64,000 nt of DNA from Lentisphaeria bacterium (GTDB lineage Bacteria > Verrucomicrobiota > Lentisphaeria > JABSQK01 > JAWLHB01), in NCBI GenBank assembly GCA_041690595.1, contig JAWLHB010000017.1, positions 62,001 to 126,000 of the forward strand, in the 5' to 3' direction. Under the pieces are notes generated by a model, which searched no databases, was not told where the DNA came from, and saw nothing but the letters and a program-made list of their open reading frames with translations. Made by a program: the position numbers and the translations under genes. Positions within the stretch are counted from its first letter, which is position 1. Each line of letters starts with the position of its first letter. Of the stretch, positions 16,286 through 37,006 are shown in pieces.

Positions 16286-16446
16286 CGTATCTCTCCTCTC
16301 GTTAGCAGTAGGTGTATGTGTCGAAAATGAGTGTGGAAATTGAAAAGCCTTCCGAGCACCGTCAGCGGTGGATTCAGAAGGAGTAGATTTGGCTTCGAAA
16401 GTGGACAAGGAAGGTTTCATGGATGTCGCTGTTGCTCTTGCTTCGC

Positions 16447-18408: not shown

Positions 18409-20991
18409 TTACTCGATGTACTCGTAACGAACCAGGCGGTAGTGCGTTGCGTTCAACGCGTCTCGGTATACAACGGCCATGACGCGCTGCTGCGCAAGAA
18501 TGCGGTCAGCGCCCGGATCAAAACGTTTCAACATGGCCGGCACATCCCCAGCGGGGGAGCCGCGACGCGCGGGGACTCGGATGAGCATCTCCTCTTCCGT
18601 CCCACCCACGTCATCAACAACTTGGGCCACCAGAATGATGGTGAAGTAGTTCTGCCTGATCGTGGCGAGGGGCGCCACTCGTCCGACGATGGATTCCATG
18701 GCGGCGTCACCAGCCAGGTAGGCGTCGAGATTTTCCCAATCGCGTCCAATGTTCGGAACATTGGCAAAGGCGGATCGGCGGGAAAAGGGGATGCTGGCAA
18801 TCTGGTTTCCAGCTTCATCCGCGCGCACAGCGCCATTCATCCTGACAATCTCCTCGGCCAGGTCCTCCGCAGCCGAAACAGGCAGCAGAATGTCCGTCCG
18901 AAGCGCCGAATCGTAGTGGCTGGCAATGGGTACGCCGGCCAGCAATGCTCTCAGAACCGATTTGTTATACGTATTGATATTGACACGACCAACTTCGCGC
19001 AATCGATCCCCCATCTTCACCTGGTCGAGGATATTGGCGTCGCCATTGACATAGCTGCCAAGTCCAGTGGTTGATGTGGCATGTGTATTATGACGCTTAA
19101 GATTGATAGTCTCCCAAGGAGCTCCACGATGGATGGTTCCCAGTTCCCACATGGATTCCATGGGGGCATTCCGAATGTAGTTGGTCGAGACTCCCCATGG
19201 GTCGGAGACCTCTGGTTCATGGTCCTTTTCCAGAAAACCATCCAGATTGACATCGACTTGGGGAGCCGGATTGCAGAAGGTGTTCCTGCTGCCGATCGTG
19301 TTACCCTCCCCCGGTCCATCGCCCCACGCTAACTGCCATCGCCATCCACTGCGATGGTGATTGGCCCTTGGGTCGTCAACCTCATAGCTGATTGTCTTGA
19401 AATTATCAGTCAGCGAGATGTTCTTAGTGGCACCGGTCTCCGCAAGTGGCTCAGAAGCTCCGACAAAATCAAGTACCTGCCCAGCGCTATCCTTGAGCAC
19501 CGCGTACTTGATTCGCAGATCGGCGATGAAAACTTGGCTGCTGCTGCTGCCGAGAGGTAGTGTTGCTCGTGCAGCCAGATTGCTGTAGCCATAATAAGAC
19601 TGGGCATCAATCGTCATATCTCCATAGGATGCCTCGCTGGCATTGAGAATATAGGTGAAGGTGGCCTCATCGGGCACATTGTCGATGCTGTAGCCAAGAG
19701 TCACTGACACCAACAAGCTGGTCTGGTCGATGTTGATGTCAATATCGTGCATGTTGATGAGTTCTGCCCGAAAATCGGTGTTCAGCTCATAGGAGCCGGG
19801 AGTTTCGGCAACTTCGGCCAGACTGAGGGTGAAGGCGAATTCATTGATGTACGGGAGCTGCTCGAGGCCCACGTAAGTCGCGAATGGAGCGGGATCTTCG
19901 GTATAGTCGGTGGTGGGCAGACTGTCGCTATCGCAGTAGTCGATAAGATTGGCGATGATCTGGTACTTCGTCTGTGTGTTGGCGTAATGCAGCCATGGAA
20001 TGCCGCCGGTATTCGGGGCCGGAGTGAGCATTCCCCTGCCAGTGCCACTGGGCTCCTCCCAGTAAACGCTGGCGCTGGTGTCAATGGTGGCGATAGCGAT
20101 GGCATCCCAGTCAGCATCCAGATTGAAGCGATGCCTGTCAATCGGGCTGTCATGATACGCTTCGATGTCGTAGCTGTGCGGAAAGAGGTTTGCAAGCACG
20201 TCGATCCGAATGTCCTCGTCATTTGCGGCACTCGTCAGAGTGGAATCCTGATGGAATATGTGGTAATGCGAGAGCCACCTCAGGTTCTCCGGCAATGCCC
20301 CACCTTCATGGATCAGCGGTTGAAAGTAGCTGGCAACCGCTGCATCCGCAAAAAGATTATTGAGATCGATTTCGCTGCTGCTGAGCCCTTCGCGGGGCGG
20401 CTCACTGCCCTCGGCATGGGAGGCGCTGACCGCGGAACTGGGATCGATCTTGCCCGACTCATCTATAATGACGTAAGCATAGCGGGCGACGATTCGATCC
20501 TTGGTTTCACCTGCCAGGATGTGCACCCAGCCGACCGAAGGATCGAACTCCTTGAACCCAAACGGCAGATAGTCGACTTCCCCCAGTTTGACATGAAGAG
20601 CGGGATCAATCTGATCTTGATCCTGCTCTTGACCGGCCGGGCTGTGGCTGCACCAATAGTAGCGTCCCTCACAGGGGCTTCCTGGCGGCCCGAGCCGCGC
20701 TCCCTTCAAGGGCGCCGTGGCTGGAAAGAGGTTACTTACATCACTGCTGACGGCGAAGTCGATAGCCAACTCTTCATAGACCTTCTGAAGGCTGTTCTCG
20801 GCTTCCAAGCGGGCGCGCATCAGACTGCCATCCAGTTTGCCAACGGCCTGGGAGTTGATGGCAGCCAAAGCAAAGGAGAATGCCAGGACGAGCAGGAGGG
20901 AGAGGACGGCCAGCGTCATGAGCAGAGCGATACCCTTCTCTCGTGAATTCTGGCGGCGAGGGGGAACCTGACAGTGCAGCTTCATGGTCAT
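18409..20991 (-). CDS. GspK/PilX-like large minor pseudopilin (Verru_Chthon cassette A-like)
   Basis: EKG|IALLMTLAVLSLLLVLAFSF leader without Glu5; GspK-type motifs DESGKID and GRVNINT; 4-bp overlap with the upstream gene. Confidence 0.8.
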   Translation of the reverse strand: MTMKLHCQVPPRRQNSREKGIALLMTLAVLSLLLVLAFSFALAAINSQAVGKLDGSLMRARLEAENSLQKVYEELAIDFAVSSDVSNLFPATAPLKGARLGPPGSPCEGRYYWCSHSPAGQEQDQDQIDPALHVKLGEVDYLPFGFKEFDPSVGWVHILAGETKDRIVARYAYVIIDESGKIDPSSAVSASHAEGSEPPREGLSSSEIDLNNLFADAAVASYFQPLIHEGGALPENLRWLSHYHIFHQDSTLTSAANDEDIRIDVLANLFPHSYDIEAYHDSPIDRHRFNLDADWDAIAIATIDTSASVYWEEPSGTGRGMLTPAPNTGGIPWLHYANTQTKYQIIANLIDYCDSDSLPTTDYTEDPAPFATYVGLEQLPYINEFAFTLSLAEVAETPGSYELNTDFRAELINMHDIDINIDQTSLLVSVTLGYSIDNVPDEATFTYILNASEASYGDMTIDAQSYYGYSNLAARATLPLGSSSSQVFIADLRIKYAVLKDSAGQVLDFVGASEPLAETGATKNISLTDNFKTISYEVDDPRANHHRSGWRWQLAWGDGPGEGNTIGSRNTFCNPAPQVDVNLDGFLEKDHEPEVSDPWGVSTNYIRNAPMESMWELGTIHRGAPWETINLKRHNTHATSTTGLGSYVNGDANILDQVKMGDRLREVGRVNINTYNKSVLRALLAGVPIASHYDSALRTDILLPVSAAEDLAEEIVRMNGAVRADEAGNQIASIPFSRRSAFANVPNIGRDWENLDAYLAGDAAMESIVGRVAPLATIRQNYFTIILVAQVVDDVGGTEEEMLIRVPARRGSPAGDVPAMLKRFDPGADRILAQQRVMAVVYRDALNATHYRLVRYEYIE

Positions 20992-21737
20992 CGGCCAATA
21001 AGTTTGTTCAAGTACAGAATGCGCATGAAGGCACTCTGGGTAAGGAGGAGATTGGCGGCGGTGGGATTGGGAAGATGGGGATCGAAGAGGACCAGTTCGA
21101 TGTCGGCGCGCTGCGGAAGCTCATAGATAACGGTTCCGCTGCCGATGGGAACGGCGTCGGCCTGAGCGACAAAAAAGGACATGTTCAGCTCTTTGACGCC
21201 GTCCTGCAAGATGGTTTCATAGGTGCTGTCGGGGTTCACTACCCAGGTGGGCTCGCTGAGCTCTGTTTTGCCGAAGAAGTCCCAGTCGACACTGGTGGCC
21301 ACGACGACCATACGTTTGAGACTATTATCCTCGACCTTGTAGTAGATCTCACAGAGTCGGCTGGCGCCGTTGTTGAATGGGACACTGGCGACAAAGGCCG
21401 CGACAAAACCATCCTGTGCCGGATCGGGCACATAGAAGCCGATCTCCTGATCCAGGAGCGAGCTGGCGACAGCGCAATTGAGATCCCGCTCGATAATGTC
21501 GAGAACTACGCGCTGGGAATCGATCATCTCCAGACGGCTATCGTTCCGTTGCCAGGTAGTCTGCGCCGTATTGATGTAGCGAAAGAGCAGAAGCATCATG
21601 ATGGACAGGACGGACATGGACATCAGCAGCTCTATCATGGAAAAGCGACTACAACGCGACGTCTGGCGCTGGCGCGTCTCCGGCTTCTTGAATGAATCAG
21701 GGTAGTACATGGTGAACTGCGGCCTCATCTGAATCAA
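20988..21737 (-). CDS. GspJ/PilW-like pseudopilin (cassette C-like)
   Basis: SR|FSMIELLMSMSVLSIMMLLL prepilin motif followed by a 'LDIIERDL..A' helix typical of GspJ; exact start uncertain. Confidence 0.8.
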   Translation of the reverse strand: MIQMRPQFTMYYPDSFKKPETRQRQTSRCSRFSMIELLMSMSVLSIMMLLLFRYINTAQTTWQRNDSRLEMIDSQRVVLDIIERDLNCAVASSLLDQEIGFYVPDPAQDGFVAAFVASVPFNNGASRLCEIYYKVEDNSLKRMVVVATSVDWDFFGKTELSEPTWVVNPDSTYETILQDGVKELNMSFFVAQADAVPIGSGTVIYELPQRADIELVLFDPHLPNPTAANLLLTQSAFMRILYLNKLIGR

Positions 21738-22291
21738 CGGTCGGGTTTTCGCCAGTCGCCCTGGCCAAACGGGAGAACACCCTGCTTCCTGCGGATCGGG
21801 ACCATGTTTGCCTTGTGCAGTGCCTCCACCTCATCAAAGGTCAGCCAGGTGCGTTCAGCTCGAGCGCCGGTAAGCGCCTGCCACCGGGCCTCCAGCTCTT
21901 GAAGCCTCTTCATGGCCTGCCGCATGGGCTCCCCGATGGTCTGCTGCTCGAACAACTTACCGATCGCTTCATTGACCTCTGCCAGTCCACGAGCAATATC
22001 TGCCAAAGCCTGCTGCTGACGGGCCAGCTGACCATTGTTTCGTCGGGTAGCCGCTTCCGCGGCGGTGGCGGCTTGCGCGGCAATTCTGGAGTAGCGCAAG
22101 GCATCCGCTCTGCTTCCTTCAATGATGATGGAGTAAGCCACATTGAAGGTCTGGGAGAGGTCATGTGGGGTGCTGCTCACGCGCGGCTTGCGCGCGGATT
22201 CAGCGGCGAAGGCGGAACTGCCGCTGATGCTCAGAGCAATCAGCAGCGGACCGGCAAGGCGGAGAAGGTGTGAATGGGAGATGCCACACAT
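21734..22291 (-). CDS. Hypothetical secreted alpha-helical protein inside the pseudopilin cassette
   Basis: Signal-like LLRLAGPLLIALSISGSSAFA; Ala/Gln/Arg-rich helical body; stop overlaps the next gene. Confidence 0.7.
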   Translation of the reverse strand: MCGISHSHLLRLAGPLLIALSISGSSAFAAESARKPRVSSTPHDLSQTFNVAYSIIIEGSRADALRYSRIAAQAATAAEAATRRNNGQLARQQQALADIARGLAEVNEAIGKLFEQQTIGEPMRQAMKRLQELEARWQALTGARAERTWLTFDEVEALHKANMVPIRRKQGVLPFGQGDWRKPDR

Positions 22292-22449: not shown

Positions 22450-25400
22450 CTACTGCCCAGGCAAATCACGAATGGGCACGGTGTTGTCACCTGAATGAAC
22501 GATGCGGATATTACCGGTGCCTTCGAGTTCGCGGCAGACAAGACCGCCGCGAATCTTGCCGCTTCCAGTTACCAGCACCTTGGCATCCGGCGCGTACATG
22601 ACGCGTACGAGGGCAGAAGCATCACCCGTCACGGAAATATTCGCGCCGCCCGATACGATGTGCCCCATGATGCCAGACGAGCCGGGTATGACGATGTCCG
22701 CGGAGAGAGAATACAGGGATCCGGCATAGCGGGTATTTCCACCCGGATTGATGGCTCCGCCGCCGGCGTAATAGATGTGCGCACTGTCAGTCGAGCCGGA
22801 TGCATTGATCGTGCTGTCACCACCGAGGGTAATGCCACCATCGATGTAGAAGGTGAGACTGCCTCCGCCAATGAGGACGATGTGGCCCTGCACGATGTCA
22901 AGGTTGCCGACCCGTATGGTTCTCGCCTGTCCCTGCAGATCGAAGGTAAGCCTGCGATCATGCAGAATTTCGATCGAACCAAAGCTGCACCCATCGTAAT
23001 CGGAAGGACGCAGAGTCCGATCGTTGCTTGCGCCACCGGAGAGCTTTATGTTGCTCTTCGCGGTTCCTTCGGGGAACTGCGGGAAGGGGGGAAGCTCAAA
23101 CTCCAGTTCCCGCGGCAGGTTTGCCACATCACCGCCGATGTTGTCCAATTCATTGGGCCGCGGCGTTTTGAGAACGGTTGTTGCAATACCACCCGGTCCG
23201 ATGACCAGATCGCCGGTAATAATGGCGCTCCAATCCAGTTCCACCGAATTGGCGGAGGTAGAATTGGTAATAGCGGTTCCCACGATCTGCGAACTGCCGG
23301 TCAACCGTATCCTCTCCTTCACAAACAAGCCGGCGCCAAAATAGGAGTCGACCAGCGTGACGGTAACAATCGCCTCAGCATGTGCGGTAGCGGCGGCAGT
23401 GATCTCGGCGGTGCGTGCCCCCGCGAGCAGACCATCGTCGACAGCGCCGACATGGAAGGTGACACTCGTCTCGCCCGCGGGAATGACGATGGACTCGGGA
23501 ACCGTGGCCGCGGTCACGTCGGAGCTGGATAGGGCGACAGTCAGGGCAGCCGCGGGATCCGAATCTCGCGTGAGTGTGGCGATCGCCGCCTCATCGCCGG
23601 AGGTGTCGGCAAAGGAACTGGGCTCGACAGTGAGCCCAAGTGAGCCCAGCACGAGAGGCGCGCAGGTGACGGTGACTGCCTCAACGCCATCCTTATAGCC
23701 ACTGGCGCTGGCGGATATGGCGACACGTACGTCGTTGCAGTCCGCGGCGGGGTCCGCTTCGCCGATGCGCTTTCCGTCTTCGGTGACAACAATGCCGTCG
23801 CCGCTGACGCTGACCCACCAATGTCCCATGGCTTTACCGTTCTTCGGCTTCGCATTATAAACGCGCACTGTCATCGCGCCGGAGAAGGTATAGATGGAGC
23901 TATTGCGAAGGGGATAAATCTTGCCGTTAATGTATAGGGTGTTCTGATTGCCATTGCCCTTGGGCTTCACCAGCATGTAGGTGGCGCCACCCTGGTAGAA
24001 GGTCCCGTCGCCACTGATCGGCGAATCCTTGTGCAGATCATCGCGCGTGTAAGTTGCTCCCCCAGCGGTTTGGAGCGTGAACTCCATGTGCGGGCTGTTA
24101 TTGGGATTGATATTGATGCCGCCCGCGATGCTGGTATCCTCGTCATCACCATCTCCGGCGCCAGCCGCGACATAGAAGGTTGCGGTCGATGCATCAGCCT
24201 GGATGGTAACAGATCCCGGCACGGAGGCCGAGGCGGGATCGCCACTGGAAAGGGAGACATTCAGAGCATTCGCAAGCGATGCGGCAACGCGCGTAACGGT
24301 TCCAATCGCTGCTTGATCACCGGCGTTACGCGCGAAAGTATCGGGAGCCACGACAACGAGCAACATATGGTCTACGTCGCGAACGTTGATGGTGGCCGAG
24401 GCGCTGCCATGCAGGTCGGCAGAGGCAGTGATCTCAACGGCTTGATCGCCATCCGCCTCATCGTCATCAATCGCGTCGACCGCGAAGGTTGCGGAGTTGG
24501 CTCCAGCCGACAGGGTTACCTGCGTCGGCACAGTCGCTTCAGATGTATCGCTGCTGGTGAGTTGGACGACAAGTGGATCGGTGAGAGACGTATTACGCGT
24601 GACGGTACCGGTAGCAGCGTGCTCGCCATCGTCTTCGTCTATTACTGCTGGCGTAAAGGCCAGAGTCAATGTGGCGGTGTCGATGTCCCTCACCAGGATA
24701 CTGCTTTCTCCACTGGCATAGCCATTGGCGCCAGCGACCACGGTAACGCTCTGGTCCCCATCGACAAGGTTGTCATCGACAACAGAGAGAGCGGCAGTGA
24801 CGCTGGCCTGGCCGGGAGGAATGGTCACGGTGGTGGGTACGGTCAGCTCGGTGGTGTCGCTGCTGGAGAGGTTAACGACAAGTGACTTCAGGAACTGCGG
24901 GTCTGCCGGATCCGTGTTGCTTCGCGAAATGGTGGCGACAGCCGCGGGGTTGTCATCCTTCTCCCAGACAAGGGGGACAGAGACAGCGACAGTGAGGAAT
25001 TCCGCGTCTTCAACAGTGATACTGGCCGTGTCCCCCGTGTGCTGGGCTGCCGAGGCGGATACGGTCACATTTTGCTCACCGTCGAGCAGCTTGTCTTCCA
25101 CGGCATTGATGGCAAACGTAGCCGAGGTGCGCCCGATGGGAATCGTGACGGAGGCAGGCACGGTAATCTCGGATGTATCGCTGCTGGCCAGTTGGACGGT
25201 CAAGTCATGGTCTGGATCGACCACATTGCGGGTCACCGTGCCGTAGGCGGCGGCTTCGCCTGCATTCTCAACCACCATGCTGGCGGAAAGCGAGAGCGAC
25301 AATGAGCCCTGGTCGACGACGGTCAGCGCCGCGGTCCCGGTTTCGTAATTGGAATTGGCCGCCGAAAGGGTGACAAGGGTCGGAGGATCCAACTCGTCAT

Positions 25401-26856
25401 TGGAGGTGACATCGACAGCATAGCTGGCCGAATCCTTTCCAGCCGCAATGGTGACGGAATCCGGCACGTGAACTCTCCCATCACTGCTGGAGAGGCTGAC
25501 AACCAGGGCTCTCGGGGTAGCACCATCGCTGCGGGTGACAGAGCCGGTGGCAACGTTGGCACCCGATCCTTCGGTCACGGTCGTGGGGGCAACGGATATA
25601 GTGATCGTCTCGTGGTCCGTTACGAGTATGGAGTCACTGCCGGACGTATAAGCATTGTTGCTGGCTGTGATCGACACAACCTGATCACCGTCGAGAATGT
25701 TGTCATCAACGGCCAGAACCATGAAGGTGGCCGACGATGTGCCAGGACTGAGAACCAGATGCGTGGTGCTCGGAACGGCCTGAGTCTGATCAGAGGTCGT
25801 AAGTGTAACCGGAAGCGCGCGATCGAGATTTCCGCCCAGGCGTTCAACGGTGGCGCTGCTCGACCCGCCATTCTCGGACATGCTGCTGGCGGCAATGATT
25901 ACGCGAAGCGAGCTGATCTCATCGTCAAGAACGTTGAAACTGTCATTACCCGCGCGGTATTCAGAATCCGCTTCGGCGGGCTGCGCGGTGATGGTAACGC
26001 GCTTCGTGCCATCCTCGATGGCGTCGTCCACGCCGGTGATGGAGAAGGTGGCAGCAGATTCATTCGCCGGGATGGTCACCTCAGGAGCAACGACGGCTTC
26101 CGCGGTATCGGACGAGGTAAGATTGACGCGAAGGCCAACGCTCAAATCGCCGAACACACGTGCAACGCGCCCGGAGGCGGCATTCTCACCATCAGACTCA
26201 TAGATTTCATCCTCAAAGACGTCGACGACAAGAACGGATACCTCGCCCGGGAGGAACATGGTAATCTGGTAGACTTCTCGATTGCGACGGGTGTAGGGCA
26301 ATTCCGCGGGCCAACTGACTTCGGCAAAGAGAACTGCTGTCTTGGCGGTAGCGTCAGAGCCATCGCCGTAATCGCGAACTTCCTTCCAAGCGCGGACAAT
26401 GGCACTGAAGGAGATGTCATTGGCGGAGCTGCGGTGGATGATCTTGAAGAGACCGGAGTTGTGAATCTGGGGATCGAAATCGGCATCAGGGCTACCTTCA
26501 TTCACCAGCCAAAGCAGTTCAAGATACTGGCTGGGCGAGAGGGATTCCGTGCTCCATTCCATGTGATCGGGATCCGCGGCCGCATAGCTCTTGGCATCGG
26601 GGAAGGCATCGACATAGTGCCAGTCACCATGGATCCGATTCTGCGAATAGCGCAGGAACTGCTGGAGTGCGCTGACCGCGGTCGCGCGTGACATACTGCC
26701 TCGATTGGCGTCGAGTCCTTTCGGCAGGAGAACCATAATGCTGATGACAGCGACGACGATGACCACCAGTGCGATGACCAGTTCGATCATTGTAAAGCGT
26801 TGGAGTAGGGACCGCAGGGTCTGCTTTGTTCTGGCCAGCATTAGAGGACTCCTCAT
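22450..26856 (-). CDS. PilV/GspI-like pseudopilin (cassette B-like) fused to 8 Calx-beta-like repeats and a C-terminal beta-helix-like domain (1468 aa)
   Basis: QR|FTMIELVIALVVIVVAVISIMVLLPKGL leader and EVSWPA motif. Repeats contain LxSSDT.E..VP..VTIP.G..SATF...VDD...DG. Gly-rich tail (YAGSLY..A, IMGHIVS, VMYAPDA, IRGGLV). RBS GAGGAG. Confidence 0.85.
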   Translation of the reverse strand: MRSPLMLARTKQTLRSLLQRFTMIELVIALVVIVVAVISIMVLLPKGLDANRGSMSRATAVSALQQFLRYSQNRIHGDWHYVDAFPDAKSYAAADPDHMEWSTESLSPSQYLELLWLVNEGSPDADFDPQIHNSGLFKIIHRSSANDISFSAIVRAWKEVRDYGDGSDATAKTAVLFAEVSWPAELPYTRRNREVYQITMFLPGEVSVLVVDVFEDEIYESDGENAASGRVARVFGDLSVGLRVNLTSSDTAEAVVAPEVTIPANESAATFSITGVDDAIEDGTKRVTITAQPAEADSEYRAGNDSFNVLDDEISSLRVIIAASSMSENGGSSSATVERLGGNLDRALPVTLTTSDQTQAVPSTTHLVLSPGTSSATFMVLAVDDNILDGDQVVSITASNNAYTSGSDSILVTDHETITISVAPTTVTEGSGANVATGSVTRSDGATPRALVVSLSSSDGRVHVPDSVTIAAGKDSASYAVDVTSNDELDPPTLVTLSAANSNYETGTAALTVVDQGSLSLSLSASMVVENAGEAAAYGTVTRNVVDPDHDLTVQLASSDTSEITVPASVTIPIGRTSATFAINAVEDKLLDGEQNVTVSASAAQHTGDTASITVEDAEFLTVAVSVPLVWEKDDNPAAVATISRSNTDPADPQFLKSLVVNLSSSDTTELTVPTTVTIPPGQASVTAALSVVDDNLVDGDQSVTVVAGANGYASGESSILVRDIDTATLTLAFTPAVIDEDDGEHAATGTVTRNTSLTDPLVVQLTSSDTSEATVPTQVTLSAGANSATFAVDAIDDDEADGDQAVEITASADLHGSASATINVRDVDHMLLVVVAPDTFARNAGDQAAIGTVTRVAASLANALNVSLSSGDPASASVPGSVTIQADASTATFYVAAGAGDGDDEDTSIAGGININPNNSPHMEFTLQTAGGATYTRDDLHKDSPISGDGTFYQGGATYMLVKPKGNGNQNTLYINGKIYPLRNSSIYTFSGAMTVRVYNAKPKNGKAMGHWWVSVSGDGIVVTEDGKRIGEADPAADCNDVRVAISASASGYKDGVEAVTVTCAPLVLGSLGLTVEPSSFADTSGDEAAIATLTRDSDPAAALTVALSSSDVTAATVPESIVIPAGETSVTFHVGAVDDGLLAGARTAEITAAATAHAEAIVTVTLVDSYFGAGLFVKERIRLTGSSQIVGTAITNSTSANSVELDWSAIITGDLVIGPGGIATTVLKTPRPNELDNIGGDVANLPRELEFELPPFPQFPEGTAKSNIKLSGGASNDRTLRPSDYDGCSFGSIEILHDRRLTFDLQGQARTIRVGNLDIVQGHIVLIGGGSLTFYIDGGITLGGDSTINASGSTDSAHIYYAGGGAINPGGNTRYAGSLYSLSADIVIPGSSGIMGHIVSGGANISVTGDASALVRVMYAPDAKVLVTGSGKIRGGLVCRELEGTGNIRIVHSGDNTVPIRDLPGQ
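23350..26240 (-). repeat. 8 Calx-beta-like (~100 aa) repeats
   Basis: Repeated SSDT.E/VTIP/SATF/DD..DG motifs counted in the translation; boundaries approximate. Confidence 0.8.
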
Positions 26857-26934: not shown

Positions 26935-27099
26935 TCAAATGCCAGAGGCGGGCCGGCGCGGACGGTTCTCGAGGGAACCGAATACGACTTGTGCCTTCGC
27001 CGTGCCGCCCTTCACATTCTGGCGGGGCAGCAAGTCGTCCAGCTTGATGGACTGGCGAAGGGCCGATTGCCGCGGTTTCGCTTTATCATTGTTCTGCAT
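26935..27099 (-). CDS. Small peptide 1 (54 aa), LDDLLP..V.GG...FGSL family
   Basis: MQNNDKAKPRQSALRQSIKLDDLLPRQNVKGGTAKAQVVFGSLENRPRRPASGI; AGGAG RBS upstream of ATG 27099; paralogous to 27419-27568. Confidence 0.8.
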   Translation of the reverse strand: MQNNDKAKPRQSALRQSIKLDDLLPRQNVKGGTAKAQVVFGSLENRPRRPASGI

Positions 27100-27356
27100 G
27101 GTAGGAAACTCCTGCGCGGTATATGGAGAGAGATCGGGAGCAGTGGGGGAATGGTGTGTGCCATACCCAAAATGGCATACTACCACGGCGCTATTTCATG
27201 AGCATCCATAATGCCAGAGATGCACACAGCAACGTAACTGCCTGCAGTCACGTAACTTACGAACTATTCACAGATTCCTCGCGTGCAGATAAAGCGCTGA
27301 AGATGCTACATCGTCGGCACAATTTGAGGACTACATGGCCGTATATTGGTACACGC

Positions 27357-27390
27357 ACACACCTGCCCGAGGGGATCAGGGCAGGTGTGT
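27357..27390. terminator. Perfect 12-bp stem-loop downstream of small peptide 2
   Basis: ACACACCTGCCC-N10-GGGCAGGTGTGT. There is no clear U-tract, so it may be a terminator or an mRNA-stabilising hairpin. Confidence 0.5.
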
Positions 27391-27418
27391 ACGGGGGCCG
27401 CCTGGCACCGGAGCACAG

Positions 27419-27568
27419 TCAGAGTCTGTCTGGTTTACCAAGGGAACCGAAGAGAACCTTTGGTTTCCCCTTGCCGCCGATCACGGTCTTCTTGGGAAGC
27501 AAGTCATCAAGGCGAATGGCCGGCTTGGCCTTGCGAGGTGCTTCCCGAGGGTCGCTTTTTTCTTTCAT
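27419..27568 (-). CDS. Small peptide 2 (49 aa, absent from ORF track), same family as peptide 1
   Basis: Manual translation MKEKSDPREAPRKAKPAIRLDDLLPKKTVIGGKGKPKVLFGSLGKPDRL*; purine-rich AGGAAGAGAG upstream of the ATG. Confidence 0.8.
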   Translation of the reverse strand: MKEKSDPREAPRKAKPAIRLDDLLPKKTVIGGKGKPKVLFGSLGKPDRL

Positions 27569-27872
27569 GGGTATAATCTCTCTTCCTGGTGTTTGGGGAG
27601 TCCCCGCTGAACGAGGTTCCTATAGCACCATGGATGCCCAAGTTCGACTCTGATTACGGAAGCCACTGATATAGCGAGACTTACGATTTCTAACCATAAA
27701 CAAACGATAGGTCAACGCAGTTGGCAAGCGTATCATAGAGGCTCAACATTGTCCCACTTTGAAACTATTTTCGTTCATGACGGGACATAAGACATTCGGC
27801 CGTGCATGGAGGTTCTACCTGTGATAAAGTAAGCGTTTCACGGGAGGAACAAGAAGATGACATGGTTTTGGC

Positions 27873-30149
27873 ATGAGTGAAGCGACTAAGTTGACCAGAG
27901 CGAGCGGTAGCTACCGGGGGACGGCCTGGATCTGCCTGATGCTGGTGGCATGGACCTTCGCCGTCTACGCGGCGGTGTTGACCTTCGAATTCGTCAATTA
28001 CGACGATCAGGTCTACATCACCGAGAACCTGCGGTTACAGCAGGGGCTGACGAGCGAGAGCTGGCGCTGGCTGCTCACCACGAATCGCGGCGGCAACTGG
28101 CACCCGCTGACGTGGCTGTCGCACCTGCTCGACCACGCACTTTTCGGGCTGAACCCAAGTGGCCACCATGCCAGCAACCTGATCTATCATCTGGTGAATA
28201 CTGTGCTGCTCTTTCTGGCGCTGCTTTCGCTGACCAGAGCGCGATGGCATAGCGCAATGGTTGCGGCCCTGTTTGCGCTTCATCCGCTGCACGTGGAATC
28301 TGTGGCCTGGGTTTCCGAGCGCAAGGACACGCTGAGCACACTCTTCTGGATGCTGACACTCCTGGCCTACAGCTATTACGTGCGACAACGGAATTGGCGG
28401 CGTTATCTGCTGGTAGTTGCGGCATTCGCGGGAGGATTGATGTCGAAATCGATGACCGTCACGCTACCGTGCGTGCTGCTGCTGCTCGATTACTGGCCGC
28501 TCAACCGGTTCCGCCCAGTGCTCGGTGGCGGGTGGCTGAAGATCCGCGGAGAGTGGTGGCAGTGCGTGCTGGAAAAGCTGCCGCTGCTGCTGATGTCGGC
28601 GGCCCTGGCACTGATCACAATGCAGACACAAACAGATGTCGGAGCGATGGCGGGTCACGTGCCGCTGGTGCAGCGCCTGGGCAACGCCATCGTCAGCTAC
28701 GGGATCTACCTGCGACAGATGGTGTGGCCGCTGGACCTGCATATCTTCTATCCGCATCCCATGGGCGACCTGAACTGGTACCTGGTCTGGGCAATGCTCG
28801 CGCTGTTGCTGGCGATCAGCGCGGCGGTGACGGTGGCAGCCATGCGGCGACCGTATCTGACGGTGGGCTGGCTCTGGTATGTGGGAACGTTGGTGCCGGC
28901 AATCGGTATCATCCAGGTGGGGGAGCAGGCGATGGCCGACCGCTACACCTATATCCCCTTGATCGGGATCTTCATCATGCTGGCTTGGGGAATACCGGAA
29001 CTGATCGATCGCGAGCGGAGCCGGCAGCTTCTCGTTCCTGTTTCAGTCATTACCCTTCTTGCCTGTTCGGTACTGACGCTTCGGCAGGTGGAGTACTGGC
29101 GCAATACAGAGAGCTTGTTCAGCCGGGCCTTGGCAGTGGATCCCGACAATTACGTTGCCCACGCGAATCTTGCCTCGCTGGCGGCAGAGAGACAAGACTA
29201 CGAGCAAGCGAAGCGACATTTTGAAGCCGTTCTGGCGGTGAAGCCACGTAGCGCGGACGCACTGGGCGGTATCGGAGCGGTGCTCTACAAGCAGGGACAT
29301 CACGAAGATGCCATCGCCTGGCTTGGCAAGGCACTGGAGAGGCAGCCCAAGCATGCGGATTCGCATCTGAACCTGGGGATCATCCTTGCCAATCGTGGTG
29401 ATCATGCGGAGGCCATCCCACACTTCGAGCTGGCCATGAAGCATAAACGGGAAGACGATCCCGAGGTCTATTACAATCTGGCACGCAGTCTTCAGGAGAC
29501 CGGGGAGATCGACGCTGCCACCGGCTTCGTTCGACAAGCCATTCGCCTCAACCCGCGCGATGCGCGCTGCCACAATCTGCTAGGCGTACTGCAACGGCAG
29601 CAGGGGCTGATGGCCGACGCGTTGAGTTCCTATCGCCATGCCATCATGCTCGACCCGGAGTTGGGCGAACCCTACTACAATCTGGCGCTGGCGCATGAAG
29701 CGGAACAGCATCCGGAACTGGCCATCAAGTCCTATGAAGAGGCCCTGGCCAGAGGGTATGCAAGTGAGCGCCTGCATTACAATCTGGGTCTGCTGCACCA
29801 CCGTGCGGGGAAGTTGAAGTTGGCAGAGCGTCATTATCGCGATGCTCTGGAGATGAATGACGCGTATACCCGTGCGCACCACAATCTGGGTGCGGCACTC
29901 TATGCGCAAGCACGTTATGCGGAAGCTGACCAGCATTACCTGGCCGCGATTCAACAGGAACCGGATGACGCGAACATGCGCAACAGCCGTGCGGTCAATC
30001 TCATCCAGCTTGGCCGTCATGGCGACGCCATCGCGGAGCTGCAGGCGGCCCTGCGACTCGAGCCCACTCTTGAGGCCGCGCAACGGGCACTGGCGGAGGC
30101 GCGACGCCTGCTTGCCGAGGCGAAAGAGGGCGGAGCCCCCCCCCCATAA
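27873..30149 (+). CDS. TMTC-like membrane glycosyltransferase (GT-C fold) with a C-terminal TPR array
   Basis: FVNYDD acidic motif after the first TM; WHPLTWLS, HPLHVESVAWVSERKD and ADRYTY motifs; multiple TM segments; then about 8-10 TPRs (A..NLG.....G....A). Confidence 0.85.
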   Translation: MSEATKLTRASGSYRGTAWICLMLVAWTFAVYAAVLTFEFVNYDDQVYITENLRLQQGLTSESWRWLLTTNRGGNWHPLTWLSHLLDHALFGLNPSGHHASNLIYHLVNTVLLFLALLSLTRARWHSAMVAALFALHPLHVESVAWVSERKDTLSTLFWMLTLLAYSYYVRQRNWRRYLLVVAAFAGGLMSKSMTVTLPCVLLLLDYWPLNRFRPVLGGGWLKIRGEWWQCVLEKLPLLLMSAALALITMQTQTDVGAMAGHVPLVQRLGNAIVSYGIYLRQMVWPLDLHIFYPHPMGDLNWYLVWAMLALLLAISAAVTVAAMRRPYLTVGWLWYVGTLVPAIGIIQVGEQAMADRYTYIPLIGIFIMLAWGIPELIDRERSRQLLVPVSVITLLACSVLTLRQVEYWRNTESLFSRALAVDPDNYVAHANLASLAAERQDYEQAKRHFEAVLAVKPRSADALGGIGAVLYKQGHHEDAIAWLGKALERQPKHADSHLNLGIILANRGDHAEAIPHFELAMKHKREDDPEVYYNLARSLQETGEIDAATGFVRQAIRLNPRDARCHNLLGVLQRQQGLMADALSSYRHAIMLDPELGEPYYNLALAHEAEQHPELAIKSYEEALARGYASERLHYNLGLLHHRAGKLKLAERHYRDALEMNDAYTRAHHNLGAALYAQARYAEADQHYLAAIQQEPDDANMRNSRAVNLIQLGRHGDAIAELQAALRLEPTLEAAQRALAEARRLLAEAKEGGAPPP

Positions 30150-30538: not shown

Positions 30539-31606
30539 ATGCCATCCCAGTATAGCTATGTTCCCCACTACATTCGGATACGCGAGCAGATTCGGGAGCG
30601 GATCCAGCTTCAGGTCTACAAGGTGGGGAGCCGTATTCCCAGTGAGGCGGCTTTTGCTCAGGAGTTCGATGTAAGCCGCATCACCGTCACCAATGCGCTA
30701 CGGGAACTGGCGAAGGAAGGATTGCTGGTGCGCGAGCAGGGGCGGGGGACCTTTGTGGCGCCAGGCGCCCGGCATCAGTCGCGCTCGCGGCTGGCGGGCC
30801 TGCTGGTACGAACGCAGGGGCATCTTTTCGCAGATCTCTCGCGCTTCCTCAGCCGGGAGCTGAACGCCGTTGGCTACCTGCCGGCGCTGGTGGATCTGAC
30901 ATCGCTGGAAGAGGCCGAGGAAGTAGAGCGGCTGGCGCATCTTTGCCAGGCGGGTATGAAGGTCTTGATTGCGGAAGGGATGATGTCGCTGCCCTACAGG
31001 CGGATCGCGGAGATGTCGTCGGATCTGGAGAAGGTGATCTTCATCTGGCGTTATGAAAGCGCCGAGGTTGTCCCCGGGGCGGTTCATGTGTTGAGCGATC
31101 TGCGTTCGGCCGCCCAGCAGGTGTACGATCATCTGCTGGAGCAGGGGCATCGGCGAGTACTGGTGTTGACGCACATGCTTGGCGAGCATCCCCTTCGGGT
31201 ATCCGCCCAGTTGCTCAATCATTTCACGTCGCTGGCGGCGGAAGGTGGAGAGATCGAGGTACAGGCCGCGGCATATCACGAGGATCAGCCGGTGCTGGCG
31301 GATGGACTGCGGGAGATCCTGACATCCCCTACCCGGCCGACGGCGGTCTTTTCGTTATCGGATTTTCGGGTGCGGATCATCTACGAGCTGGCGGAGGAGG
31401 TGGGGCTGAGCATACCGAATGACCTCGCTCTGGTCGGCTTCTACAATACGCCGTGGTGTCAGATGCTCCCAGTGCCACTCACGTCGGTGGATCTGCGCGT
31501 TGACAATCTGGCCGAGCAAACGGCTGCCGTGCTGCAAGGCAATCGCCAATCCGCTGGAACAATCTGGGTACGACCACAGTTGATTGTCCGCTCTTCGAGC
31601 CTGTAA
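30539..31606 (+). CDS. GntR-HTH / LacI-type sensor-domain transcriptional regulator (AraR-like)
   Basis: [34 protein letters not shown] wHTH; C-terminal [19 protein letters not shown] and LIVRSS motifs. Confidence 0.92.
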
Positions 31607-31635
31607 ACAATCTAATAACGAAAGGAAGGCATATC

Positions 31636-32322
31636 ATGTACCAATCGCCGCGATCCCGTCAACCAGGGACTACCCATTTTACTCTCATCGAATTATTGGT
31701 CGTTATAGCGATTATCGCCATCCTGGCCAGCATGCTGTTACCGGCCCTGTCGCATGCGCGCGAGCGGGCGCGGCAGACCTCCTGCATGAATCAACTGAAG
31801 CAGGTCGGGCTGGGCATCCTGCTCTATGCGGAGGTGCATGACGATGTCATACCGATCGGCTTTCACCCGCGAGCCTGGGATGTCTTGAACTCGACAGGTT
31901 ACGTTGAAGGGCGGACGGGAATTCTGGATTGTCCCAGTGACATGACGCGAACGCCCAACCAAGGGCGGGCAAACGGCTACTACGCCTACTCCTTTACCGG
32001 TGGCCGCAACCGCAGCTACATCTACAATGAGCGGCTTGGAATGGTTCTTTCAGCCACAAACATTCCCTATCCCCCCAAGAACGACATGAAGCACTTCAAG
32101 AACCCGGAGTACGCGACGCTGATTCGGGATTCAGAGTGGGCGCTGGGAAATGACAACGCGTACTACCATGGGGCCGGCGGTATACAGAACTTTGCCCAGT
32201 ACTTCGCGGATCGCCATGGCGGTGGCGCCAACTATCTTTTTGCTCCAGGCCACGTGCAGCACTACAAGCCGAGCGGCTACATGAGTAACATCTCCGGCCG
32301 GAGCGGGATCCCGGGAACATGA
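31636..32322 (+). CDS. Prepilin-type N-terminal / H-X9-DG-type (DUF1559-like) protein
   Basis: [44 protein letters not shown]-terminal [15 protein letters not shown]. Confidence 0.9.
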
Positions 32323-34040
32323 TGAAGGGGAGTAAGTGCATGAGGATGCTCTTCCTGTGGGGAGCGTTGTGCCTGCTGACGGCGGCGGAGCCGGAGCTTC
32401 GCCTGCCATCGGAGTGGCTTTCGCAGCAGGAAACCGTATGGCGGGACAACGGGGTGTCGTGCCAGTGGCAAATGCCGGATGTCCTTGAAGTACAATGGGA
32501 CGGTCAACGGCAATGGTATCTGCGCCTGCCGGACGAAGCGCCACTGAGCCGCGAGGCATGGCGAAAAGCGGCCTACGCGGGGAGTTCCTTTCCGGAGGCT
32601 CGCCTGCCGATGACGCGGCTATTGCGGGGAGCCATGGTCTACGAAGGGCGAGTCAAGGAGTTGGCCAGGCAGACGGAGCAGGAGCTGCCTGCCGCGCTGG
32701 ATACGGTACTTGGGGAGCTGCGGTCACTGGGGCTAAACAGCATCGTGTACTGCACCTACATGACCCCTGGCGAATGGCCCGAGGTTGAGCGCCTGGCGGA
32801 AAAGCACGACATCGACCTGATCGTGCAGTACAATGCGGCCTACTTCCTTCCGCAACGTGGACGCAACTACTACCACGTCAACAGCCTGCCGAAAGCGCTG
32901 TCGTTTCTGGAAGTGGCGCATGGCAGTCCGCGGCTGCTGGGCTTCAGCGTAAAGGAAGAGATCTACGTACCGGAGCTGACCTGGATGCAGGAATACCACA
33001 AGGCCCTGAAGCGGCACTATCCGCAAGTGCCCCTCTATACCTTGTATAACAGCACGCCGGCGCTGGCGGCCACGCGAGAACCGGCGTCGGAAATTGTCGG
33101 AACCGACATCTATCCGTTCCTCGGGGGCTACTATGGGGGTGGTCGGCAGCTGCCGAGTTTTCTGCCGCCACAGCGCGCTCTGCGACATCAGCTCCTGAGG
33201 ACACTGCGCGATCGGCGCGATGAGGCGATGCGACGCGGCAGCGAGTTTACGTATACACCAGACATGCAGCCGGGAAGCTGGGTGTTGAGTGACGAGGAGA
33301 TGCGGGAGCGCAATATTCCGCGGATAGATTACTCGGGAGTCATCCCCCTGACCAATGGGCGTTGGTTGTTGTGGCGGCGGTACAGAGCACCTGCAAATGC
33401 CTTGAAAGCGAGCATCTGGTTAAGTGCGGCATGCGGAGCCAAGGGGTGGTTTCCCTGGTATTATTCGTCAACACTGCCCCACCCTTCTCCGATCCCGGAA
33501 TCGCCTGAAGCGCCTTTTTCCGTGGACAGCAGCCATACTGGCGGGTCCAATAGCCCAATCTGGCAGGAATATGCGCAGGCGCTCGTGGAGGTCGGCCGCT
33601 ATGAGCCCTGGCTTCTGAACTTGCGTGCGGATGGCTTTCCGCGATTCATGACGGAGGACGAGCTACTGATCGGTGAAACTCACCGGCTGACGGTGGGCTC
33701 TGGTCACGTGGTCATCCTGGTCAACTTGGATGTAGGACGCTGGGCGGATTATCCGCGGCTTGATATGAAGGCGCAGAATCTGGACGTCAGTTTTCACGGA
33801 GAACTCACCGGCTACGAGCCCCTGGATACGCCTCGTCACGTGGTCTTCAGGTTGCGCATGGCAGCGGATGAGGTGGTACGCCGCCTCGACACTGGGGAGC
33901 CGCTGCCGGGCGAGTCCACCGAAAACGGGGGCGAGCAGGTTTTCAGAGTCGAGCTGGGGCCAGGCAGCGGTCTGCCGCTGTACATTGGCACTGACGAGGC
34001 ATGGGAAGAGACAATCACTCAACAGGAAGCAATGAAATGA
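32319..34040 (+). CDS. Secreted hypothetical protein, possible TIM-barrel glycoside-hydrolase-like fold
   Basis: Signal peptide; motifs [21 protein letters not shown] and [10 protein letters not shown] are reminiscent of clan-A-like barrels; translationally coupled. Confidence 0.55.
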
Positions 34041-37006
34041 GATACGTACTATCTTTGGCGTTGTTGGCGCTGACACCATGGTTGTGGGGAGCGGAACCGC
34101 TGGTGGTGAAGGCTGAGCGTTCGCAGTCGGTGGCGGAGAGCGGTGTGCCGCGGGGAGGGCGCCTGGCAGTGGGCCACGCGGCCGAGAGCTATGCGTACTT
34201 TCAGGGTGAGGCGCGGACGTATCTGAGTTTTCGATTGCCGGAACTGCCTGTGGGGGAGCGGTTATCGCGGGCTGTGCTTCGGGTGCAATTTGCCTTTGTA
34301 GCTTCCGAAGCGAACCCGCCGACGATCACCGCGGTAGTGCTTGAGGGGGCGCCGGGAGCGGAGCTGACCTGGGCTGATCAGCCACCCGTGGAGAATGCGA
34401 AAATAGCGGCAGAGGCCAAAGGGGGCGGAAAGGAGCTGGTACTGGACCTTTCGTCGGCGCTGGCTGGCAGGGCTGGCGGAGAGGAGATTCATCTCTGCCT
34501 GAAGGCCGCGGGCAGCGGTCGGCGGTTCGGGTGGTGGACCGATAAAGGCGCGGCAGTATTGCATGTCGAGAGCGATGCTCTGGCGCAGGTACTGCCGACG
34601 ACAACGCGGGAGCAGCCGTCCCTGATGCCGGATTGGAGGAAACTGGAGCATGCGCCCATTCTGCATTACCAGTGGCCGGCGCACACGGACGCGGAGCAAC
34701 GCCAGAAGCGGCTGGACGATTACCTCGCGATGGGCTTCACGGGGATCTACAAACTGGATGGCGAGGAGAGCCATGCAGGCAAGCTCTTCAAGGAGAAGGG
34801 GATGCACGGGTTGATGCGCCAGACGCGCTTTCTCGGCAGAGGGGATGCGGTCATCGATTCAGCCGGGAATGCCATACCAATCAAGCATCCCTATCATAAG
34901 AGTGTCCTCAGCGCGCGGAATGCGGAGGCGTACTTTGGGCGCATCGCGGCATTCGCGCAGAATTACGGGCTGGAGAATCTCTTCTATTGTGGCGATACGA
35001 TCGTGATGTCGAGTTGGGACGAGACCGGGCTATACAGCCGACGATACATCGACTACGGCTATGGGGCAAAAGAGAAGTTCATCGATTACCTGCGTACACG
35101 CATTTACCGGGATGCCGGTCCAGGCGAGGACAGCAACGGTGACGGGTGGAGCTTCAATCGAGAGACGGGGCTCGACTTGGCCTCGTGGGACGAGTTGGAA
35201 TTGCCGGCTTGGGAGGATCGGTACGCGCACCCCGGGCTGTGGAAACTGTGGATCGACTTCCACGGCTATTACACCTATCTCTTCTTCCGCATGGGCGGCG
35301 AGACGGTGAGCAGCGCGATCGAGGCGCCGGTGGAGTTGTTCTGCTTTTCCCATGCCACGGTCAAGTGGCCCGGAGCCACCTCGCAGCGTGGCCTGGACTT
35401 ATATTGGCAGTCGAAGCTCAACCGCATCCTGACTGTCGAAGATTGCCAGTGGGACTATCCCGGCAGCACGATCTTCTATGCGTTCACCAATCAACTGTCG
35501 CGTCGCTATCAGTTGCCGGTTCTGGGCTGGAGCTGGTTCAGCCCAGACGTACAGCGGGCGCGGGATCCAAAGCAGATTGCCCGGGCGCTGGCGCGGGCAA
35601 TGGGGCACGATACACATGGTTTGCTGATGTGGGTCTACAACGACAAAGAGTGGCGTGAGAAGTCGGAAGCGCGATCGGAGATGGCGCGGTGGCATCATAC
35701 GTATCAGGTTCACTGGCCGTTTCTGCGCGAGGCCACGGTGCCCGCACCGGCGGTGGCGGTTGTCTTTCCTCGGAACACGGGGAACTACTATGCCAACTTC
35801 GAGTATCCGAAGCTGGATTACGGCTGGATCTGCCAGGCGCTGAGCGAGGCGCAGATACCCTTCGAGGTGATCGCGGACAATCAGGTGGAGCAGGAGCCCG
35901 AGATCCTGAAGGATTACCGGGTCCTGTTGATGCCATCGACCACCTGGCAGAGTACGCGGGTGCGGGAGAGCATCGCTGCCTTCATTGCCGATGGCGGCTA
36001 TGCCTATACGAATGCGGACAGCTTCATGCTGGACGTCACCGACGGCACGACCACCGATTTCCTGGCACAGCATTTCGGCGTACGGCCACAGCGCAAGTTC
36101 AAGGGAACGGTGTCGCCAACTCAGGACTCTCCCGCCGAAGCGGAGTGGGCGCGCGGCGAACCGGCCAAGCTGCCGGAGCCGGTATGGGAGGGGACGGAAG
36201 ATCGCAGCCGCTTCCGCGCCGATGACGAGAAGGTCGTAGCCGCCGTCATCGAAGAAAGCCAGGTGGAACAACTGCGGGCCAATCTGCCGACGACCAGCGG
36301 CAGCGGTCTGCCCCAAACGCTCTGGGATCCTCGCCAGCCTCAGATGATACGCAGTGAGGGGGCAGAGTGGGTGCCGGCGCCTTACCGCACCTATCACGAC
36401 ATCGTGGTGGGCGACGTGCAGCGCGGCGCCAGTGTCGTGGCAAGCTATGGCACCGAACCCTGCGCGGTGGAGACTGAACGCACCTTGTGGACAGGCTTCC
36501 GGCCAGGCTTCGATCACGCCACACTCTTTCCGGTGATCACGATGCGGCAGTTCGGCGAACCCATCTGGCCGTTCGAGATTACCGAGGCCAAGACGGCAGC
36601 CGATCGGGAAGGTCCTCGGCGTTGGATCACCCGGATCGTGGAAAAGGCGGGTGTGACACGGCCGGTCGAGGTCACCCTGGAGGGTAAATTGGCGGCAAAT
36701 GTGGAGCTCCTGCGCCGCGAGGCGGGTGGGAATCAGTTGATCTGGCTCATTAACCATGAGGAGCGACCGGGAACCTACAAGGTGACCGGCAGTGCGCTGA
36801 CCGGGGAGTCCGCGGCGGAGTTGCTTGGCGATCAGCCACTCGTTCGGGACGCGGACGGCGGGTATTCCGTCAAGCTGGATGGCCATCGAGTGGCGATTCT
36901 GGCGGTAGGCACTCCAAGCTTTGTCCAGGAAAGACTGGCTGCCCAGCGGCGCGTACCGAAAGAGATACCGCCGATGCCCGAGTATGCGGAGGCGACCGGT
37001 GAGTAG
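34037..37006 (+). CDS. Secreted modular GH42-like protein (N-terminal CBM96/DNRLRE-like domain, TIM barrel, beta-galactosidase trimerisation-like domain)
   Basis: ATGA overlap at 34037; signal [25 protein letters not shown] and LTWADQP (CBM96-like); WDE; ALSEAQIPFEVI..LKDYRVLLMP..FIADGG (GATase-like trimerisation domain). Confidence 0.65.
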   Translation: MRYVLSLALLALTPWLWGAEPLVVKAERSQSVAESGVPRGGRLAVGHAAESYAYFQGEARTYLSFRLPELPVGERLSRAVLRVQFAFVASEANPPTITAVVLEGAPGAELTWADQPPVENAKIAAEAKGGGKELVLDLSSALAGRAGGEEIHLCLKAAGSGRRFGWWTDKGAAVLHVESDALAQVLPTTTREQPSLMPDWRKLEHAPILHYQWPAHTDAEQRQKRLDDYLAMGFTGIYKLDGEESHAGKLFKEKGMHGLMRQTRFLGRGDAVIDSAGNAIPIKHPYHKSVLSARNAEAYFGRIAAFAQNYGLENLFYCGDTIVMSSWDETGLYSRRYIDYGYGAKEKFIDYLRTRIYRDAGPGEDSNGDGWSFNRETGLDLASWDELELPAWEDRYAHPGLWKLWIDFHGYYTYLFFRMGGETVSSAIEAPVELFCFSHATVKWPGATSQRGLDLYWQSKLNRILTVEDCQWDYPGSTIFYAFTNQLSRRYQLPVLGWSWFSPDVQRARDPKQIARALARAMGHDTHGLLMWVYNDKEWREKSEARSEMARWHHTYQVHWPFLREATVPAPAVAVVFPRNTGNYYANFEYPKLDYGWICQALSEAQIPFEVIADNQVEQEPEILKDYRVLLMPSTTWQSTRVRESIAAFIADGGYAYTNADSFMLDVTDGTTTDFLAQHFGVRPQRKFKGTVSPTQDSPAEAEWARGEPAKLPEPVWEGTEDRSRFRADDEKVVAAVIEESQVEQLRANLPTTSGSGLPQTLWDPRQPQMIRSEGAEWVPAPYRTYHDIVVGDVQRGASVVASYGTEPCAVETERTLWTGFRPGFDHATLFPVITMRQFGEPIWPFEITEAKTAADREGPRRWITRIVEKAGVTRPVEVTLEGKLAANVELLRREAGGNQLIWLINHEERPGTYKVTGSALTGESAAELLGDQPLVRDADGGYSVKLDGHRVAILAVGTPSFVQERLAAQRRVPKEIPPMPEYAEATGE

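Follow-up and report, generated by a model that had tools for sequence, protein, structure and literature searches.

The window analysed here, a 64,000-nucleotide stretch of a Lentisphaeria bacterium genome, carries two short genes, P0001 and P0002, upstream of a cassette of pseudopilin-like genes. The features of this locus, in the direction of transcription, are as follows:

27751..27765, minus strand: enhancer-like 15-bp palindrome of the GTHTCA-N3-TGADAC type, with one mismatch, 126 nt upstream of the sigma-54 site of P0001
27624..27639, minus strand: sigma-54 promoter-like site (−24 GG/−12 GC) of P0001, GG-N10-GC
27419..27568, minus strand: GG-FG peptide 1 (P0001), 49 aa, probably on a transcript of its own
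27345..27402, minus strand: strong hairpin 3′ of the P0001 stop codon, −33 kcal/mol, no U-run
27201..27216, minus strand: sigma-54 promoter-like site of P0002 and the downstream cassette, GG-N10-GC
26935..27099, minus strand: GG-FG peptide 2 (P0002), 54 aa, first gene of the pseudopilin cassette
22450..26856, minus strand: pseudopilin-like protein, 1468 aa, with a Verru_Chthon B-like N terminus and Calx-beta-like and DUF7305 regions (TIGR02598, E = 2e-4, below cut-off; PF23981; weak PF03160)
21734..22291, minus strand: 185-aa cassette protein, no family above cut-off
20988..21737, minus strand: Verru_Chthon C-like pseudopilin (TIGR02599, E = 7e-11, below cut-off)
18409..20991, minus strand: Verru_Chthon A-like pseudopilin, 860 aa (TIGR02600, E = 0.03, weak; assigned by position and N terminus)

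Both peptide ORFs are real and are as the original prediction described them. Each is preceded by a purine-rich, RBS-like site (27582–27587 for P0001 and 27108–27113 for P0002), and the common motif I[KR]LDDLLP[RK]xxVxGG-x5-[VL][VL]FGSL is exact in the two peptides. P0001 had escaped the ORF caller, being one residue short of its 50-aa cut-off, and the mechanical caller places P0002 within a GTG-initiated frame of 83 aa. Across 71 nt, the coding cores share 72% identity, a tblastn comparison of P0001 with P0002 gives E = 1.6e-8 with the next match at E = 0.8, and a search of the motif in all six frames of the 8.1-Mb genome returns P0001 and P0002 only. The genes are arranged head to tail upstream of the cassette, as proposed, but they do not form a tight pair because 320 nt, including the hairpin and the second sigma-54 site, lie between them. 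The hairpin is a candidate terminator or 3′ stabiliser. Two 13-nt direct repeats, 18 nt apart (27227–27257), are found directly upstream of the P0002 sigma-54 site and are possibly the site of a second regulator. The end of P0002 is separated by 78 nt from the gene for the 1468-aa pseudopilin-like protein.

The cassette is similar to the Verru_Chthon A, B and C genes in gene order and in its pilin-like N termini, and differs in the extension of the B-like protein to 1468 aa. Its proteins score 21.5, 41.9 and 12.2 bits against cut-offs of 51.4, 256.5 and 332.3 (TIGR02598, TIGR02599 and TIGR02600, respectively), and are related to Verru_Chthon without being members. Two further cassettes with D-, B-, C- and A-like pseudopilin genes are present in this genome (C33:5335-11507 and C11:176198-180901), both without the peptide; in C33, a sigma-54 site and the palindrome lie between D and B. 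Downstream of the cassette, on the same strand, an ORF of 18,216 aa starts at 16420 and runs off the left end of the window (window 1–16420; C17:23770-78420). Two 2000-aa pieces of this giant surface protein are full of BACON_2/Ig-like repeats, and it is possibly the client of the pseudopilin cassette. On the other side of the peptide genes lie a TMTC-like GT-C/TPR gene (27873–30149, with PMT_2 and TPR matches) and, at 30539–37006, a GntR/LacI-type regulator, a DUF1559 prepilin-type gene and two large unannotated proteins that form a separate sugar-use-like locus.

P0001 and P0002 follow the pattern [IV]xLxDLxPxxxVxGG-x2-7-FG of an unannotated family, and neither has a match in Pfam or NCBIfam. 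A profile built from the two sequences matched 17 of 41 genomes (this genome included; E ≤ 1) and 35 cluster representatives, 31 of which are short proteins; four long ones (P0017, P0019, P0028 and P0030) are repeat proteins and were dropped as chance matches. In the 48-member alignment obtained from the profile searches, Leu(−9), Gly(−2) and the Phe and Gly of the FG are invariant and Gly(−1) is conserved in at least 90% of members, in agreement with a conserved GG. The tails are basic and variable throughout, as had been noted for the termini of the two window peptides. When the same alignment was compared with NCBIfam, four families only were found, each matched by one or two members, and no PDB sequence fell below E = 0.3. 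The nearest 30 clusters in the ESM Atlas (0.94) are nameless and most commonly from Verrucomicrobiota; lantibiotic, microviridin and ComC clusters reach 0.76–0.79 only and are a lead at most. The peptide alone was predicted by AlphaFold2 to form a helix (residues 20–23) and two strands (29–31 and 37–40) flanking the GG, with a pLDDT of 72 and a pTM of 0.26 that are too weak to serve as evidence, and Foldseek returned no matches for this predicted structure.

The FG dipeptide is a conserved feature of the family. With FG left outside the search pattern, a degenerate DNA scan of genome contigs gave at least 120 matching stretches, and FG is present in 74 of the 80 loci among them that were compared with their flanks, as well as in 45 of 47 metagenome loci, some of the latter near-identical. 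Between GG and FG lie anywhere from 2 to 7 residues. The distance from IxL to GG hardly changes, a regularity imposed by the pattern for pattern-found loci. The residue after FG is unconserved (Ala in 28, Val in 15 and Ser in 6 of 55 unique cores), so the conserved Ser once proposed for the core is a feature of few family members. Purifying selection is evident, with pN far below pS in five informative pairs, a sixth pair being nearly identical: core pN/pS values are 0.09/0.65, 0.16/0.73, 0.09/0.65 and 0.20/1.0, and 0.26/0.56 between the two window copies. The codons after the GG are likewise constrained (pN 0.19 versus pS 0.59, n = 52). One member carries the source label Lentisphaeria, the named records are mostly Chthoniobacterales, and single MAGs are labelled, as deposited, Alphaproteobacteria, Limnocylindrales and Opitutus. 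In viral contigs, 81 pattern matches yielded no confirmed member.

Outside this class, the family has a defined genetic setting. The operon encodes, in order, a PpiC-like protein (TIGR04500-related), a C39 transporter (PCAT) with cNMP domains, HlyD, a sensor-less sigma-54 activator (bEBP) and then the FG peptide. Among 56 genome-contig loci with at least 3 kb of upstream sequence, the bEBP is present in 49, HlyD in 48, the PCAT in 48 and the PpiC-like protein in 44; 11 metagenome-contig loci with at least 3 kb upstream include the bEBP in 9 and the PCAT in 9. Adjoining the FG peptide are one to four further GG peptides, here called cargo peptides, which follow it in Chthoniobacterales and precede it in some metagenome lineages. 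Cargo cores have low sequence complexity and are hypervariable, and cargo leaders vary in length between lineages. The hydrophobic-hydrophobic-FG expression matches none of 77 cargo cores (L154 reads MLFG, which the expression does not admit), and the FG peptide and the cargo leaders have D-L-x-P and GG in common. At one locus (L056, in G080), genes that by eye resemble an operon of the PilM-secretin pilus type lie ~2 kb downstream of the cassette, an arrangement that is not recurrent elsewhere. By sequence and genome comparison, P0001 and P0002 very probably belong to the conserved peptide family of this PpiC-PCAT-bEBP module.

In this order, the module is encoded in trans, away from the peptide genes. 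In this genome, contig C80 carries a PpiC-like protein of 374 aa, a PCAT of 1050 aa with two cNMP domains and an intact Cys/His/Asp triad, and a bEBP of 374 aa. The statement that no C39 exporter is present thus holds for the window and fails for the genome, in which the C80 transporter is the single C39 match. No HlyD is found at the C80 locus, and tblastn with the cassette HlyD detected no homologue in this 97%-complete genome; TIGR01843 gives sub-threshold matches only (best 68.5 bits, cut-off 208.65) and, among the 15 genomes of the order, exceeds that cut-off in one. A genome-wide search also found no cargo-type peptide, and no HlyD lies within the stretches fetched around the PCATs of 10 other genomes in the order. 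The dedicated HlyD that accompanies a PCAT in Gram-negative type I peptide export is therefore a feature of the other lineages and not of this locus. The C39 triad is kept in 19 of 19 transporters compared, one of which, that of G245, lies outside the module. A lipid A acyltransferase-like gene, and sometimes a ClpP gene, recur directly upstream of PpiC-PCAT in the order (L119–L125).

The distribution of the peptide largely follows that of the bEBP. In 81 relatives, the 48-member profile matched 15 genomes, the PpiC-like protein was found in 12 and a single-copy bEBP orthologue (53–72% identity) in 16. Every one of the 11 bEBP-bearing genomes in the order also has the peptide, G013 as a contig-end tail only. 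In the four without the bEBP, the peptide is truncated (G001), frameshifted (G011), absent (G008, which has neither module nor peptide) or intact (G004). G001 and G011 have no C39, PpiC-like or bEBP match, and the adjacent cassette is deleted relative to G005. G004 (95% complete) has an intact peptide before a pseudopilin and is devoid of bEBP, PpiC-like protein, long PCAT and sigma-54 site; its peptide core gives pN 0.09 and pS 0.65 against G014a. G018, G022 and G037 encode the bEBP and a PCAT of reduced length, with no peptide detected, and a palindrome search of G013, G018, G022, G037 and G031 found no diverged peptide in the 15 loci examined. A 301-genome sample of the phylum contains five strong peptide matches (E < 1e-8), three weak matches having been dropped as long or stop-broken frames; four genomes have both peptide and bEBP, one the peptide only and two the bEBP only. 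The relatives are not independent, and the losses of peptide and module amount to approximately three events.

In this class, the peptide is associated with pseudopilins. Among 24 intact copies, 14 lie directly before a B-like pseudopilin gene, one is fused to it and nine are neither; each of the 11 genomes in the order that carry an intact copy has one or more that head, or are fused to, a pseudopilin gene. Stop and start codons of peptide and pilin overlap or abut in G009, G003 and G006, and gaps elsewhere reach 123 nt. An in-frame fusion of the peptide to a prepilin leader occurs at L009:1246-1620, with an in-frame stop after codon 124, and an intact one occurs at the metagenome locus L291. 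The neighbours of L291 and L293 resemble mobile-element genes. Outside this order, no pilin was seen next to the family.

The consensus of sigma-54 promoters is GG at −24 and GC at −12, and a site of this type precedes 17 of 27 peptide copies compared with 2.5 expected, with none on the opposite strand. A variant, TGGCAYG-N5-TG[ATG]T, is found before 70 of 74 named loci, 69 at 100–120 nt; four of the 74 repeat copies among the 27, the strict GG-N10-GC pattern scores 9 of 70 named loci, and the relaxed pattern was drawn after these sequences had been viewed. The named Verrucomicrobiae loci (L131–L210) have a perfect −24 box and, in 68 of 70, TGAT, TGTT or TGGT for TGC at −12, possibly a lineage variant of the sigma-54 −12 element. 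The palindrome lies 90–135 nt upstream of the sigma-54 site in many copies of this class; it was drawn by eye from these promoters, which makes the count of 9 of 15 there circular, and it is present in 20 of 67 further loci compared with 2.9 expected. Ten of 550 sigma-54-like sites in this genome have such a palindrome, one of the ten being a contig-edge artefact, and three have it with at most one mismatch, including that of P0001. The P0001 promoter and the promoter of the peptide-less C33 cassette are two of the three best among the 550 sites. No palindrome is found within 230 nt upstream of the P0002 promoter.

The 27 module bEBPs form one clade (100/100), separate from 15 other bEBPs of this genome. 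They have an intact GAFTGA motif and neither a sensor nor a receiver domain, as would the partner of an anti-activator of the PspA/HrpV type. The 27751..27765 palindrome is a putative binding site of the C80 bEBP, which we infer to read the P0001, P0002 and C33 sites. This assignment is inferred because the genome also encodes a second short bEBP frame on C58 and two rpoN genes; in addition, it contains ~22 strong matches to sigma-54 activators and 106 sigma-54-like sites by the strict pattern, many of them upstream of stress-type genes. Seven bEBP residues (L31, A35, F73, A126, I130, Y136 and T183) are invariant in peptide-bearing lineages and changed in two peptide-less bEBPs; because the latter come from a single long-branched lineage, these residues were not used. 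Sigma-54 sites, palindrome and sensor-less activator all point to a regulatory role for the peptides, and none of them figures in the original prediction.

A double-glycine leader had been proposed from the motif, and the lead is borne out by the C39-PCAT operons that house the family in other lineages (48 of the 56 loci that have 3 kb or more of upstream sequence) and by the triad-bearing PCAT on C80. Position −4 is hydrophobic, being Val in both window peptides, Val in at least 70% of the alignment, and Val in 86 and Ile in 3 of 90 cores, the pattern-found part of which is biased. The helix signature Leu−7/Glu−8/Leu−12 is not found in these leaders: position −7 is Lys or Arg in 69 of the 90 cores, −8 is Pro in 88 and −12 is Asp in 78, with Leu at −13. 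The C39 domains described in two studies require Leu−7 and Leu−12 in the leader (PMC6363468, PMC6959990), and cleavage of a leader that has neither is therefore not assured. The leader appears to be a lineage-specific GG type held in common with the cargo peptides and not a canonical member.

These observations could well be explained by a regulatory peptide that is made from the bEBP's own promoter and restrains the bEBP until the PCAT cleaves or exports it. The C80 bEBP would transcribe the peptide and the cassette, and the intact peptide would bind and restrain the bEBP through residues on both sides of the GG, thereby supplying the control in trans that a sensor-less bEBP needs. When active, perhaps through a nucleotide ligand of its cNMP domains, the PCAT would cut at the GG, move the C-terminal part to the periplasm or do both, and removal of the peptide would lift the brake and turn the operon on. 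In lineages with HlyD and cargo peptides, such a brake would keep the synthesis of cargo in line with the capacity to export it; in this order, the switch would have been rewired to pilus-like genes. This brake is the simplest account of a small product that is invariant in the module, has what looks like the target promoter as its own, shows conservation on either flank of the GG and persists with an active-looking PCAT where neither adaptor nor cargo was found. Sequence does not distinguish an inhibitor from an activator or an exported signal.

Among the alternatives, an exported signal is unlikely: the PCAT would cut at the GG, the x-FG core would reach the periplasm or medium, and its detection there would act back on the bEBP regulon, much as competence pheromones induce pseudopilin genes in streptococci. 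The GG, Val−4, the intact C39 triad, the conserved hydrophobic-FG core, the autoregulatory sigma-54 promoter and the extra solo copies would all suit a signal, for which HetC, a cNMP-PCAT with no nearby fusion protein gene (PMC10986499), offers a precedent. However, no receptor or kinase recurs among the neighbour clusters present in at least 3 of 76 loci, the bEBP has no receiver domain, and the variable GG-to-FG spacer and unconserved tails are unlike a tuned ligand. A helper or pseudo-substrate of the transporter, which would gate or prime export by docking on its C39 or cNMP domains or on the PpiC-like protein and leave the bEBP untouched, is somewhat less probable again. It would account for the D-L-x-P and GG shared with cargo leaders, for the single conserved copy in export operons and for a co-occurrence with PpiC-like protein and PCAT that is as tight as that with the bEBP, yet the peptide persists, and is even multiplied, where neither HlyD nor cargo was found and nothing obvious is left to gate, a setting in which conservation of the bEBP would go unexplained.

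Slightly more doubtful still is a role in cis or in the pilus within this order, in which the downstream pseudopilin would depend on the peptide or on the act of translating it, for example through translational coupling or through binding of the prepilin leader. The overlapping or abutting genes, the two separate fusions (that at L009 with its later stop) and the retention of peptide and pseudopilin without the module in G004 would suit such a role; the family is nevertheless not beside pilins outside the order, gaps to the pilin reach 123 nt, solo copies exist and some cassettes are peptide-less (C33, C11 and G008). Finally, a modified, Ser-glycosylated precursor or a microprotein that binds the TMTC-like TPR protein, ideas suggested by adjacency in the window and by FGSL in both local cores, is highly improbable, given the rarity of Ser after FG, the absence of a recurrent modifying enzyme from the neighbour clusters in at least 3 of 76 loci (first 100 residues judged by eye), and hence of any enzyme and modifiable residue co-conserved as in a modified RiPP precursor, and a TMTC-like gene that has five matches in this genome and matches three other fetched loci only, none of them peptide-adjacent.

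Several known systems resemble parts of the brake proposed above. PCATs are known as exporters of bacteriocins and pheromones, and the output of the streptococcal ComAB-CSP system is a pseudopilin operon. Similar to the module, that system pairs a GG peptide with a PCAT (ComA consensus in PMC6363468); it differs in using ComE/ComX in place of sigma-54 and a bEBP, in its two-component receptor, for which there is no recurrent counterpart here, and in its leader, as Leu−12, Glu−8 and Leu−7 are missing here. HetC of Nostoc PCC 7120 is likewise a Gram-negative PCAT with an N-terminal cNMP domain and C39, no nearby fusion protein gene and an effect on transcription, and in the model proposed for it a cleaved substrate acts on a regulator (PMC10986499). 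A cNMP-PCAT without a fusion protein can thus control gene expression; no GG peptide lies near HetC, whose substrate and target regulator are unnamed (PMC10986499). The module described here differs in that its PCAT, with two cNMP domains, is genetically tied to a GG peptide and to a sigma-54 activator. Cyanobacterial bacteriocin clusters of groups I, II and VI also combine a long C39 ABC protein with CAP_ED, a rotamase/SurA protein and double-glycine precursors, but have HlyD, a leader of the form M(R/K)ELX3E(I/L)X2(I/V)XG(G/A) rather than xDLxPxxxVxGG and, in the passages compared, no invariant FG core after the GG; the text of that paper makes no mention of sigma (PMC3140520).

The closest parallel on the activator side is that of PspF with PspA and of HrpRS with HrpV. 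PspA is encoded by the first gene of the operon that PspF activates. Both PspA and HrpV are folded proteins without similarity to the peptide (no family match) and are not known to be protease substrates. Sensor-less bEBPs need control in trans, and PspF and HrpRS are restrained in this manner by PspA and HrpV (PMC7057263). No paper on this peptide or module was found in the openly accessible literature searched. Within that scope, there is no description of a conserved peptide dedicated to the module, of its link to the bEBP or of a rewiring to pseudopilins; the parts themselves are of known kinds.

A small-protein family absent from the libraries searched is now defined, and its module brings together candidates for the peptide, transporter, activator, promoter and enhancer in a small, directly testable set. 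More tentatively than the brake itself, the switch, in which a nucleotide-sensing PCAT would destroy or remove a 50-residue anti-activator and so release a sensor-less sigma-54 activator, may have arisen as export-coupled control of peptide secretion across several phyla and, in this lineage, have lost its outer export parts and cargo and been repurposed for pseudopilins. If the brake model is true, it would be a new way of controlling sigma-54 activators, and the module provides a first handle on the regulation of the uncharacterised Verru_Chthon-like pilin cassettes.
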